Source: a virus
Virus genome (UHGV): UHGV-0128318
DNA length: 19,979 nt
Direction: 5' to 3' (one strand)
Below, piece by piece: positions 3,107 through 15,948 of the stretch. Numbering within the stretch: position 1 is the first letter of the stretch; every line of letters begins with the position of its first letter. The notes beneath the pieces are model-generated. The model saw nothing but the letters and a program-made list of their open reading frames with translations. It made no database searches and was not told the origin of the DNA. Made by a program: the position numbers and the translations under genes.

Positions 3107-3151
3107 GTTCTCACGCTCTTGAATGGTGGTAGCCCAAGCGGGGGTGAGAAT
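3107..3151 (-). promoter_or_regulatory. Leader target elements upstream of the icd-like RBS: a second copy of the 10-mer gttctcacgc (3107-3116, identical to the RNA loop at 3277-3286) and its partial complement gtgagaa (3144-3150)
   Basis: Exact 10-nt direct repeat 170 bp apart plus a 7-nt inverted copy. This allows either an intramolecular hairpin in the mRNA leader or pairing of the upstream small-RNA loop with the leader. Confidence 0.45.
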
Positions 3152-3234
3152 ACCGGCAAACGAAGAAACCGGCCTGACCGAAGTCAGCCCCGCCTGAGCC
3201 ACCATAAATCGGATATGCGCAGGTATATACACAC

Positions 3235-3256
3235 AAAAAAACACGCTGGCGCGTGT
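3235..3256 (-). terminator. Intrinsic terminator on the minus strand (acacgc-gcca-gcgtgt followed by T7), inside the leader of the antirepressor operon
   Basis: 6-bp GC-rich stem, 4-nt loop, immediate run of 7 T on the minus strand. Confidence 0.6.
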
Positions 3257-3309
3257 TGTGCGCTTCGTTTATCCGGGTTCTCACGCCCGGCTGCGGAATT
3301 TGCCGCAGC
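3235..3309 (-). ncRNA. Candidate c4/CA-type small regulatory RNA of about 75 nt: two stem-loops (3291-3308 ctgcgg/ccgcag; 3273-3290 ccggg/cccgg with loop cgugagaa) followed by the terminator
   Basis: Promoter-like TTGACG-18-TAAAGT on the minus strand (3345-3316) placed about 7 nt before the first stem-loop; loop sequence repeated and complemented in the downstream leader. Matches the known architecture of P1 c4 / P4 CI / N15 CA immunity RNAs. Confidence 0.45.
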
Positions 3310-3315
3310 GGAGTA

Positions 3316-3345
3316 ACTTTACCGTTAAAACGACGCACACGTCAA
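3316..3345 (-). promoter_or_regulatory. Putative sigma70 promoter of the anti-immunity operon (TTGACG-18-TAAAGT)
   Basis: Hexamer match and spacing read from the sequence; no other support. Confidence 0.3.
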
Positions 3346-3761: not shown

Positions 3762-4157
3762 TCAATCAACTTTTTTAGCATCAGCCATACGCTTCAACCA
3801 GTAATCAACAATCGGCTGCTCATCCACAGAATGTTTACCAGGTATAACTCGCCAGCTATCTTGCGAAAATCTGCCGTACTTACGCGGGAATAGGCCTTTC
3901 TTTATCTCCCGCCATGTACTAGGAAAACCATCCACAAAAGTACCAATTAACAGGAGAGGGACAAAAATCAGAGCTACAAACCATCGTGCAAGAAAGTGTT
4001 CAACAACAACATTTTCACCGTTGTAGTAATACGCATACGCATCCAATATGCGAATTTTCCTTACCTTAAAAATAGCCTTATGCTGAGAACGACTTAACTT
4101 GATACGAATGTATCCCTTATCCAAAGGGGATTCGTATTTGTATGATTGAACAGCCAT
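3762..4157 (-). CDS. Single-pass membrane protein, about 131 aa (TM segment FVALIFVPLLLIGTFV); function unknown
   Basis: ATG at 4157-4155 with GGGG at 6-nt spacing; hydrophobic helix in the middle; AT-rich like its downstream neighbour. Confidence 0.5.
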   Translation of the reverse strand: MAVQSYKYESPLDKGYIRIKLSRSQHKAIFKVRKIRILDAYAYYYNGENVVVEHFLARWFVALIFVPLLLIGTFVDGFPSTWREIKKGLFPRKYGRFSQDSWRVIPGKHSVDEQPIVDYWLKRMADAKKVD

Positions 4158-4159
4158 TT

Positions 4160-4486
4160 TTAACCCCACTCACCATCAGCAAACAAAGCGTTATACTCTG
4201 ACAATGGTAGATGGTTGCCCTCGATGTAGAGATTCAGTTCATACTTCGTCTCCGGGTTTTCCTTGTCGGCTCGTTCCCAACGCTCAGCAGCCTCACGCGC
4301 CAATAACTCCACTGCTTTCAGATAATCCTCCGTACGGAACCAGCCAAAGATAAGGCCACGATCTGTTACAGCCCAGGCAACCTTTTTTTCTTCCTCCTGG
4401 ATAGCCTTAATGCGTCGATCGCATTCATCCCGGCAAAACTGCAGCTGACGGTAATCAAGTTTGTCCAAAAATGCAGTAGTAGACAT
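4160..4486 (-). CDS. Hypothetical cytoplasmic protein, 108 aa (MSTTAFLDKLDYRQLQFCRDECDRR...)
   Basis: ATG at 4486 preceded by GGGGAG; the track start at 4564 is an upstream extension without an RBS. Confidence 0.5.
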   Translation of the reverse strand: MSTTAFLDKLDYRQLQFCRDECDRRIKAIQEEEKKVAWAVTDRGLIFGWFRTEDYLKAVELLAREAAERWERADKENPETKYELNLYIEGNHLPLSEYNALFADGEWG

Positions 4487-4490
4487 ATTT

Positions 4491-4589
4491 TTACTCCCCG
4501 TTAACCGAAAAATCACGATAGAAACGTTTCCACATACGATAAGTCTGCGCGAGTTGTTCACCACGAAACATCGCCTTCCTGGCCTTCAT
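4491..4589 (-). CDS. Possible 32-aa micro-ORF (MKARKAMFRGEQLAQTYRMWKRFYRDFSVNGE) between repA and the next gene
   Basis: AAGGAAAA then ATG; its stop overlaps the RBS of the downstream gene. Too short to judge further. Confidence 0.25.
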   Translation of the reverse strand: MKARKAMFRGEQLAQTYRMWKRFYRDFSVNGE

Positions 4590-4674
4590 GTTTTCCTTGT
4601 GAGACTTTCGATCTATGAACCAAAACCATTGCTGGAACACACAAAGCAAGAGACACAAAGATAATATCCACTGA

Positions 4675-14662: not shown

Positions 14663-14678
14663 CTGTAATTTTATACAG
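14663..14678. promoter_or_regulatory. LexA (SOS) box CTGT-aattttat-ACAG overlapping a candidate promoter (TTGAGT-17-TACAGT)
   Basis: Matches the CTGT-N8-ACAG consensus with an AT-rich spacer; the only such site found in the window. Confidence 0.55.
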
Positions 14679-14716: not shown

Positions 14717-14920
14717 ATGTCTGAAGCAGCCGTATCAACTCTTGAACAACTCGATTCAAATTTAAGAGATATTGACGCCATTCTGGATCTGGTTAGCGTC
14801 ACCCTGGCTTCTCCAGAAGCCAGCCTACATATTGGTGAGGTTTCACGACTCATCAACATGTCGCGAGAGATTGCCCAGCATTGTCAGAAAACTATCGCTG
14901 TTGAGCGTTCACATCATTGA
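14717..14920 (+). CDS. Small SOS-controlled protein, 67 aa; candidate LexA-regulated antirepressor (AntC/Tum-like by regulation and position)
   Basis: First ORF downstream of the LexA box; N15 is known to have a LexA-controlled small antirepressor. No sequence-level identification was possible. Confidence 0.4.
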   Translation: MSEAAVSTLEQLDSNLRDIDAILDLVSVTLASPEASLHIGEVSRLINMSREIAQHCQKTIAVERSHH

Positions 14921-14962
14921 TGCACACCCCGCCCTTCTGGACGGGGTAGTAAAAGAGTCTAA

Positions 14963-15250
14963 TTAATAAACAGCGCGAATATCGATGGCTGCGCCGCAGG
15001 CATGAGCATATTTAGCCAAAGTTTTCATACTTGCCCCTAAAGGATTGCTTTCCAGGCGGCTGATGGCTGACGGTCGTAACCCCATTCGTTCAGCCAGAGC
15101 TGATTTCGTTAAACCTGCTCTTTCCCTCATTTCGTATAACATTTCGACCATCTCCAGCTCTTTGTCGGCCTCTTCATATCCTTTGACGGCTTCTGGAGTG
15201 TTGAGGAGTTTTTCTTTTACTTCGTTAAACGGGATGCCTTTCGCTTTCAT
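14963..15250 (-). CDS. HTH (XRE-family) antitoxin, HigA-like, 95 aa
   Basis: HTH segment LTKSALAERMGLRPSAISRLES; translationally coupled (ATGA) to the upstream toxin gene. Confidence 0.75.
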   Translation of the reverse strand: MKAKGIPFNEVKEKLLNTPEAVKGYEEADKELEMVEMLYEMRERAGLTKSALAERMGLRPSAISRLESNPLGASMKTLAKYAHACGAAIDIRAVY

Positions 15251-15561
15251 CAGTTCATCTCCTTCAGGCGAGTTCTGGCGATTTCGATAGCCTTCACCGG
15301 TGTTTTCTGTGTCTTTTTTACAAATGCATGCAATAGATAAATTTCGTTACCAGTCGCGTAGGCGTACAGCGTTCTTGCGATGTTTTTATCCCCTACTCGT
15401 AGTTCAAAAAGCCCTCCACCTATTACACGGCTATGGGGCATCTTCAGTTTGTTGCCTTCTTTCTCCAGTCGCTCAATTAATCTGGCCATGCGACCTCGCA
15501 AATCATCTGGTAGTTCAAGCAGTTCATCCAGTGCTGCAGGGTGGGTTATCACGTTAAACAT
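15250..15561 (-). CDS. Gp49-like (RelE/HigB-fold) toxin, about 103 aa (MFNVITHPAALDEL...LLHAFVKKTQKTP...)
   Basis: Hallmark LLHAFVKKTQKTP motif of the Gp49-like family; ATG at 15561 with GGAGG at about 8 nt; the track's longer start lacks an RBS. Confidence 0.8.
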   Translation of the reverse strand: MFNVITHPAALDELLELPDDLRGRMARLIERLEKEGNKLKMPHSRVIGGGLFELRVGDKNIARTLYAYATGNEIYLLHAFVKKTQKTPVKAIEIARTRLKEMN

Positions 15562-15726
15562 ATTATAGCCTCCACATCCATAAAATACACCAAAACAAGA
15601 AAACAACGCAAATTAAAAATTTCATTAAAAAGCGAAAAATAACACTGGATGTGTTCGTTTGGCAGAGTTACAGTTCGTGTCATTGAGGGGCAATAACCCA
15701 CTAACTATATGAATTTGGAGGATATT

Positions 15727-15948
15727 ATGAATTATCAAGGTAACGAAAAAATGCGCGGCGACGTTGCGGAGATAGCTAACGAACTGTATGAGTTGTGGCA
15801 GAAGGTTGAACGTTTCGAAAAGGAATATGGTTTCAACAGTACCAACCTAACAGACCGACTGGCTGGTCGCTTAGTTGGGACTATGGGGCCAAAACTGGCT
15901 GAGTTGAACAGCTTTATGGCTGATGTTGATTTCCAGTTTCAAGATTGA
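15727..15948 (+). CDS. Hypothetical small protein, 73 aa
   Basis: ATG at 15727 with GGAGG at 8 nt. Confidence 0.45.
   Translation: MNYQGNEKMRGDVAEIANELYELWQKVERFEKEYGFNSTNLTDRLAGRLVGTMGPKLAELNSFMADVDFQFQD

Follow-up and report, generated by a model that had tools for sequence, protein, structure and literature searches.

A probable counterpart of the N15 gp49-gp48 toxin-antitoxin operon in the virus genome UHGV-0128318

The gp49-gp48 gene pair of phage N15 reportedly stabilised a heterologous replicon, and its toxin is said to be growth-inhibitory alone, bactericidal when overexpressed, and neutralised by the cognate antitoxin. N15 gp49 is the founding member and namesake of the Pfam family Gp49. 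The N15 pair was reported as a toxin-antitoxin (TA) stabilising system of the Tad-Ata group (Dziewit et al. 2007, J Bacteriol 189:1983), and Makarova et al. 2009 linked the Tad toxins (COG4679/DUF891, with N15 gp49 as an example) to RelE RNases. Armalyte et al. 2018 (PMC5906591), citing Dziewit et al. among others, mention validated modules whose GP49-domain toxins were named Tad toxins, and state that every such module studied was toxin-first; the survey table of Gerdes 2025 lists PF05973 under ribosome-dependent mRNA degradation with the gene order T/A. Here we describe a gene pair of this kind at positions 14963-15561 of the virus genome UHGV-0128318, analysed as one stretch of 19,979 nucleotides (the window).

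Structural accounts of related systems come from Streptococcus pneumoniae and Mycobacterium tuberculosis. S. pneumoniae HigBA is a T2A2 heterotetramer in which an N-terminal strand and helices of the antitoxin bind the toxin; the helix-turn-helix (HTH; alpha3-alpha4) and C-terminal beta-strand of HigA form the dimer, and the complex binds promoter palindromes more tightly than HigA alone. For M. tuberculosis HigB1, Mansour et al. 2022 described a catalytic pocket made of K58, E66, R68, N73, R77, F93, K95, Q98 and K99, with K113, on the long C-terminal helix, touching the P-site tRNA.

A gp49-gp48 pair in an N15-type element

The two genes very probably form a type II TA operon orthologous to N15 gp49-gp48 (Tad-Ata / Gp49-HigA group), a judgement that covers identity and mechanism jointly. 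The core features are:

15250..15561, minus strand: toxin gene (N15 gene 49 ortholog; Gp49/Tad/HigB-like, RelE superfamily), from open reading frame (ORF), Pfam match and orthology
14963..15250, minus strand: antitoxin gene (N15 gene 48 ortholog; Ata/HigA-like Xre-HTH), from ORF, Pfam match and orthology
15248..15252, minus strand: TGATG junction of toxin stop and antitoxin start, read from the sequence

The toxin ORF runs from an ATG at 15561 to a TGA at 15252-15250 and encodes 103 aa. In Pfam it matched Gp49 (PF05973) along the entire profile (positions 1-90 of 90; E = 3.4e-29, 101.2 bits, against a curated gathering threshold of 23.9 bits). At the reporting limit of E <= 0.01 no other Pfam family was found for the toxin, and the HigB/HigB-like families PF05015 and PF09907 were not matched; the name 'HigB' thus expresses analogy of function and not family membership. 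PHROGs placed the toxin in phrog_2523 (E = 5e-43), and no NCBIfam model matched it. The antitoxin ORF (15250 to 14963, 95 aa, TAA stop at 14965-14963) matched HTH_3 (E = 8e-12) and related Xre-type HTH models in Pfam and a transcriptional-regulator family in PHROGs (E = 5e-36); its NCBIfam matches were sub-threshold and generic HTH ones, for example HipB and MqsA. With small profiles built from seven homologs, both proteins found the same complex in the PDB, the toxin at S. pneumoniae HigB (6AF3_A, 1.4e-8) and the antitoxin at S. pneumoniae HigA (6AF3_B, 2.4e-6). The toxin profile also reached M. tuberculosis HigB1, free (7AWK) and ribosome-bound (7NBU), at E of about 6e-4, and the antitoxin profile M. 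tuberculosis HigA3 (6LTY) and HigA2 (7EWC).

At the junction (AAC-TGA-TGA-AAG) the toxin stop at 15252-15250 and the antitoxin ATG at 15250-15248 overlap by 1 nt, and a Shine-Dalgarno sequence for the antitoxin, AAGGAG, lies within the final toxin codons (about 15259-15264). The overlap is likewise 1 nt in N15 and is 4 nt in phiKO2. Toxin-first order was kept in all homologs inspected, including those at 44-47% identity.

An earlier note on this DNA had predicted most of this: two ORFs in 14963-15561, both of which we find on the minus strand; a Gp49-like toxin with the family's hallmark motif, now backed by the full-length PF05973 match; an XRE-type HTH gene downstream, which agrees with HTH_3 and the HigA profile matches; and toxin-first order (15561-15250, then 15250-14963). 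The ATGA coupling that it described stands as translational coupling but not as a 4-nt overlap, the ATGA string being present in a 1-nt TGATG junction. Assignment by hidden Markov models, which it proposed as a check, came out for Gp49 and HTH_3 and did not extend to the HigB families PF05015/PF09907. Its addiction-module reading is the one published for the N15 pair, an orthology that it does not state.

Escherichia phages PhiR46_1 and YDC107_1, of which YDC107_1 is classified in Ravinvirus, match the window at 97-98% identity; N15, phiKO2 and Klebsiella N15-like phages match it in patches, at ~75%. The window encodes a protelomerase, a large RepA primase/origin-binding protein, the cB repressor, cro, Q, a DNA methylase and lysis genes. 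On this gene content we read the window as an N15-type linear plasmid prophage, and the linear plasmid prophage of the earlier note is borne out by gene content and synteny.

Relative to N15, amino acid identity is 91% for the toxin (gp49) and 85% for the antitoxin (gp48). The pair occupies a genomic slot common to N15, phiKO2, KpLi5, PhiR46_1 and YDC107_1, in the order gp46, gp47, antC-like gene -> <- gp48-gp49 <- -> gp50, gp51, methylase, holin. Nucleotide identity of the TA genes to N15, phiKO2 and an IncFII plasmid copy is 73-83%. In comparisons with N15, phiKO2 and this one IncFII copy, the ratio of non-synonymous to synonymous substitution rates (dN/dS), given wherever dS was estimable, was 0.03-0.04 for the toxin and, against the IncFII copy, 0.06 for the antitoxin; synonymous sites were saturated in two antitoxin comparisons. 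These values point to strong purifying selection on both genes.

The toxin also carries the signature C-terminal motif of the family, hLHxFxKK/RTQKTP, the bearer of the proposed catalytic F, K, Q and K. Its residues 76-88, LLHAFVKKTQKTP, hold these four residues and align with LLHHFMKRTQKTP of S. pneumoniae HigB, with FYANQQKTP of M. tuberculosis HigB1 (K95A mutant chain) and with MLHSFIKKTQKTP of Stx-phage homologs. In the HMMER alignment, HigB1 K58, E66, R68 and N73 correspond to toxin R45, E53, R55 and N60, and F93, K95, Q98, K99 and K113 to F80, K82, Q85, K86 and K100. Eight of the nine positions of the HigB1 pocket are thus the same or conservatively replaced in the toxin (R45, E53, R55, N60, F80, K82, Q85, K86). 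Across homologs down to 44% identity, E53, R55, R63, F80, K82 and K86 are unchanged. This mapping supplies R55, K82 and K86 as positions for toxin-dead controls.

Gene start, candidate promoter and flanking sequences

Sequences 5' of the toxin were compared in an alignment of five phages (window, N15, phiKO2, KpLi5 and PhiR46_1), and the downstream spacer was folded. The features are:

15569..15573, minus strand: GGAGG Shine-Dalgarno sequence, 7 nt 5' of the toxin ATG, from the five-phage alignment
15582..15611, minus strand: candidate sigma-70 promoter (-35 TTGCGT at 15611-15606; -10 TGTATT/TATTTT at 15589-15582), from the five-phage alignment
15620..15637, no strand assigned: short A/T-rich palindrome directly 5' of the candidate -35, from the alignment and the N15 stem_loop annotation
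14923..14951, both strands folded: G+C-rich hairpin, from RNA fold energies

The GGAGG is identical in all five phages. A mechanical ORF list had offered a longer toxin ORF with a TTG start at 15606; this candidate was rejected, its extension being unconserved and its frame broken by single-base indels in relatives. Because the invariant GGAGG precedes the ATG and the relatives' indels break the upstream frame, we place the toxin start at ATG 15561. Small ORFs are annotated 5' of the toxin in two relatives, one of 44 aa in PhiR46_1 (2379-2513 of the extracted locus), which runs over the toxin start, and one of 38 aa in KpLi5 (2319-2435). Both are probably spurious gene calls, given the frame-breaking indels between relatives.

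The 147-nt region from the toxin ATG to the divergent gp50 has a mean column identity of 85% in the alignment, more than the TA genes show against N15 and phiKO2 (73-80% nucleotide identity). It contains the candidate promoter, whose -35 TTG and most of whose -10 are invariant among the five phages; the aligned N15 sequence reads TTGTGT-17 nt-TATATT. A stringent consensus promoter scan did not call the 15582-15611 candidate, which would drive the TA operon.

Of the palindrome next to it (TTTCACT-N4-AGTGAAA), PhiR46_1, N15 and phiKO2 have a perfect copy and the window a degenerate one (TTTCGCT-TTTT-AATGAAA, two non-compensating substitutions). It might be an operator, or a terminator as the N15 record putatively annotates it. 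An 8-nt inverted repeat, CACATCCA/TGGATGTG, was also considered as an operator and dropped as unreliable; its counterpart in N15 is a direct repeat.

Further upstream, a minus-strand block at 15641-15695 (...CTCAATGACACGAACTGTAACTCTG...ACATCCAG...) is nearly invariant in the window, PhiR46_1, N15, phiKO2 and KpLi5, again above the 73-80% of the TA genes against N15 and phiKO2. It is presumably the promoter/operator of the divergent gp50-gp51 or of the TA operon.

On the other side, the hairpin at 14923-14951 occupies the 42-nt spacer that separates the stop codons of the antitoxin gene and the convergent antC-like gene. It folds at -19.4 kcal/mol on the minus strand (z = -3.8) and at -14.6 kcal/mol on the plus strand (z = -2.0) and has no U-tract on either strand. 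It is probably a transcript end or stabiliser for both convergent genes.

Maintenance, defence and the neighbouring antC-like gene

We regard stabilisation as the main selected role of the module with moderate confidence, less than we place in its identity. Two elements of the mechanism that we propose come from the literature: that the N15 pair has a stabilising function, and that family members bind the ribosome and act as RNases. Judging by the homologous M. tuberculosis HigB1 and S. pneumoniae HigB, the toxin would enter the ribosomal A site, cleave mRNA and halt translation. The antitoxin, coupled to it in translation through TGATG, would wrap and neutralise the toxin with its N-terminal part, and its HTH, as a dimer in a T2A2 complex, would repress the promoter of its own operon. 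We infer that the antitoxin is labile and decays more quickly than the toxin; loss of the low-copy plasmid prophage would then leave a cell poisoned (post-segregational killing), and the prophage would be stabilised.

The distribution of the module fits a replicon-maintenance cassette, in that close copies are restricted to plasmids and IncFII copies stand beside repA. Close copies (>93% nucleotide identity) occur in 16 of 5426 complete Escherichia coli genomes, all on plasmids (about 36-75 kb, most about 46 kb) and none on chromosomes. In PLSDB, full-length copies at about 83% identity adjoin repA on E. coli and Shigella plasmids of the IncFII type, one of them at 3999-4597 of the extracted locus. 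Stx-type lambdoid phages carry toxin homologs at 44-47% identity, which an HTH gene follows.

An unannotated fragment of the module, 231 bp long (query 78-308) and about 84% identical, is present on many F-type plasmids in PLSDB. It is made up of the 5' two-thirds of the antitoxin gene and the final 20 nt of the toxin gene, a composition that points to a decayed module or to an orphan remnant of the antitoxin. In the Helicobacter prophage record BK070149.1, a Gp49-like match falls inside a single annotated ORF of 200 aa (1135-1734 of the extracted locus) that reaches the record end; it may be a gp49-HTH fusion of the kind listed in the 2025 RelE/ParE survey.

Several points weigh against the proposed identity, mechanism or role. 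The ninth HigB1 pocket residue, R77, aligns with toxin T64, with R63 adjacent. A single-sequence AlphaFold model of the toxin had a mean predicted local distance difference test (pLDDT) score of 48 and was not used for a fold search. A second, weaker antitoxin promoter is said to be a feature of these cassettes; scanning the minus strand with relaxed -35/-10 criteria gave no internal antitoxin promoter within the toxin ORF. A search of 15540-15740 for an operator returned short repeats that are unconserved between phages, and no clear operator; no repeat overlaps the candidate -35/-10, and the sole conserved palindrome is the one at 15620-15637, imperfect in the window. Given the active partition system of N15-type prophages, post-segregational killing may be of marginal effect. 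Finally, deletion of the homologous pair s044-45, which Dziewit et al. also studied, from SXT did not raise SXT loss (Wozniak & Waldor 2009); stabilisation of a test plasmid is therefore no proof of a maintenance role in the native element. Recent phage-plasmid surveys and a telomere-phage paper held no data specific to this module.

The same machine could instead have been selected for anti-phage defence or superinfection exclusion by abortive infection (Abi), which we consider unlikely. An infecting phage that shuts off host transcription or degrades the antitoxin would free the toxin, and the toxin would abort the infection, to the benefit of lysogens and prophage. Prophage-borne type II TA modules have often been considered as Abi systems, according to a cited review, and RelE/ParE-superfamily domains recur in defence proteins (Gerdes 2025). 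Related modules also occur in the early region of lambdoid Stx phages, which are integrated and have no need of plasmid addiction. In PADLOC, residues 43-95, in the C-terminal half of the toxin, matched a Gp49-like domain of the candidate defence protein NsnC (positions 229-282 of 293, E = 2.7e-7). However, this match covers 53 residues of a 293-position model, PADLOC-DB v2 gave no full-length match and only generic HTH matches for the antitoxin, and our literature search found no test of the module against phages. Every close copy lies on a plasmid, often beside replication genes, which speaks against a defence role.

A further possibility involves the neighbouring gene, which the earlier note had described as SOS-controlled. 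Two features define it:

14717..14920, plus strand: antC-like ORF of 67 aa, from phrog_6301 and a weaker anti-repressor PHROG
14663..14678: LexA-type box CTGTAATTTTATACAG, from a scan for the CTGT-N8-ACAG core pattern

The box is the only perfect CTGT-N8-ACAG in the window, where 0.2 would be expected by chance, and it overlaps a promoter-like TTGAGT-17 nt-TACAGT. Even when up to 3 mismatches were allowed, the whole 20-nt LexA consensus had no match in the window. Box and ORF are both kept in N15 and KpLi5, and in phiKO2 with one mismatch. N15 antC is the SOS-regulated antirepressor of Mardanov & Ravin 2007, and the 67-aa ORF fits as its counterpart; an SOS-controlled neighbour, as the earlier note had it, thus agrees with an antC-like ORF behind the sole perfect box. 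In the N15 RefSeq record the homologous ORF is unannotated and lies in the gap between genes 47 and 48.

On this arrangement one could suppose that SOS derepression of the antC-like gene sends transcription into the 3' end of the operon, which is its antitoxin end, raises the toxin:antitoxin ratio and throttles translation at the onset of the lytic cycle. The Gp49 RNase would then join host shut-off or lytic commitment, and the module would be more than a passive addiction cassette. The convergent arrangement, antC-like -> <- antitoxin, is conserved in N15, phiKO2, KpLi5 and the window with spacers of 42-89 nt, as is the LexA-type box, and because the intergenic hairpin has no U-tract on either strand, read-through between the convergent genes is conceivable. 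We nevertheless judge this coupling very improbable: its evidence is one of position, the stable hairpin (-19 kcal/mol) may terminate or stall transcription anyway, and IncFII plasmids and Stx phages have the module with no antC beside it.

Equally improbable is a catalytically dead or non-toxic toxin that acts with its partner as a transcriptional regulator and co-factor for neighbouring phage genes: the Gp49-family members HigB2 and HigB3 of M. tuberculosis did test non-toxic, itself a point against an active toxin here, and the unusually conserved region shared with the divergent gp50-gp51 (85% against 73-80%) could reflect regulatory sites, but HigB2 and HigB3 lack the positions K58, N73, F93 and K99 that the present toxin keeps (as R45, N60, F80 and K86), which argues for an active toxin, as do very strong purifying selection on its gene and a literature that treats the N15 ortholog as a functional toxin.

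Elsewhere in the window, on the minus strand, Rfam gave gathering-level matches to a C4 antisense RNA (3122-3209, 82 bits), isrK (3236-3309, 68 bits) and a c4 a1/b1 target element (3270-3322, 49 bits). This stretch, 3122-3322 (-), corresponds to the immA-type secondary-immunity (anti-immunity) locus of N15, which is controlled by a small processed RNA.

Existing annotation and comparison with described systems

The module is not new, and public records already annotate it. PGAP names the E. coli copies 'type II toxin-antitoxin system RelE/ParE family toxin' and 'helix-turn-helix' protein, and TA DNA 100% identical to that of the window stands in CP088379.1 (E. coli F16EC0617 plasmid pF16EC0617-5), annotated as a RelE/ParE family toxin with an HTH protein. 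That sequence was deposited as a circular plasmid of 36.6 kb, its examined region consists of N15-type phage-plasmid genes, and its relatives are linear and about 46 kb long; the assembly may be incomplete or mis-circularised, or the plasmid may be a deleted derivative. In the PhiR46_1 record both TA genes are called 'hypothetical protein'; in that of YDC107_1 the toxin is a 'hypothetical protein' and the antitoxin a helix-turn-helix family protein. These two records, 98% identical to the window, could be re-annotated. Beyond correct annotation the finding has little import; the module would provide an expected maintenance function of an N15-type prophage beside partition and protelomerase.

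Among described systems the classical HigBA modules are related in plan and not in family. HigBA of plasmid Rts1 and V. cholerae HigB1 share the toxin-first order, a ribosome-dependent mRNase of the RelE superfamily and an Xre-HTH antitoxin, whereas their toxins belong to other Pfam families (PF05015, PF09907) than that of the window (PF05973). Gp49-domain toxins in general show scant sequence similarity to classical HigBs (PMC5906591).

M. tuberculosis HigB1, the toxin of a toxin-antitoxin-chaperone (TAC) system (7AWK, 7NBU), is Gp49-like, has been shown to be a ribosome-bound mRNase and has a pocket that the window toxin retains almost entirely. It differs in being part of a tripartite system with a SecB-like chaperone for the antitoxin, for which the window module has no gene, in its R77, which is not exactly matched, and in the weakness of the similarity (profile E = 6e-4).

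S. pneumoniae HigBA (6AF3/6AF4) is the closest solved complex for both window proteins. HigB combines a RelE-like beta-sheet with a long C-terminal helix, and its LLHHFMKRTQKTP matches the LLHAFVKKTQKTP of the window; E66, R68, F90 and K92 align with toxin E53, R55, F80 and K82, whereas D61 and R73 are unmatched (G48 and N60 in the toxin). Unlike the window module, it is chromosomal and from a Gram-positive host, and sequence similarity is weak.

Tad-Ata of Paracoccus aminophilus plasmid pAMI2, the prototype of the group, agrees by its literature description in placing a COG4679/DUF891/Gp49 toxin first and an Xre-HTH antitoxin second and in stabilising a plasmid, but it is a distant member from another host and replicon. 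Published Tad toxins are about 20% identical to other Gp49-domain toxins (PMC5906591).

The nearest system is N15 gp49-gp48 itself (NC_001901 39896-40494), an orthologous pair with genes of identical length, the same 1-nt TGATG junction, the same genomic slot and a conserved intergenic region that includes GGAGG and the candidate -35/-10. The two pairs differ by about 20-24% in nucleotide sequence, nearly all of it synonymous, and in the upstream palindrome, perfect in N15 and with two mismatches in the window. As far as the sequences indicate, no functional difference between the window module and N15 gp49-gp48 is evident.

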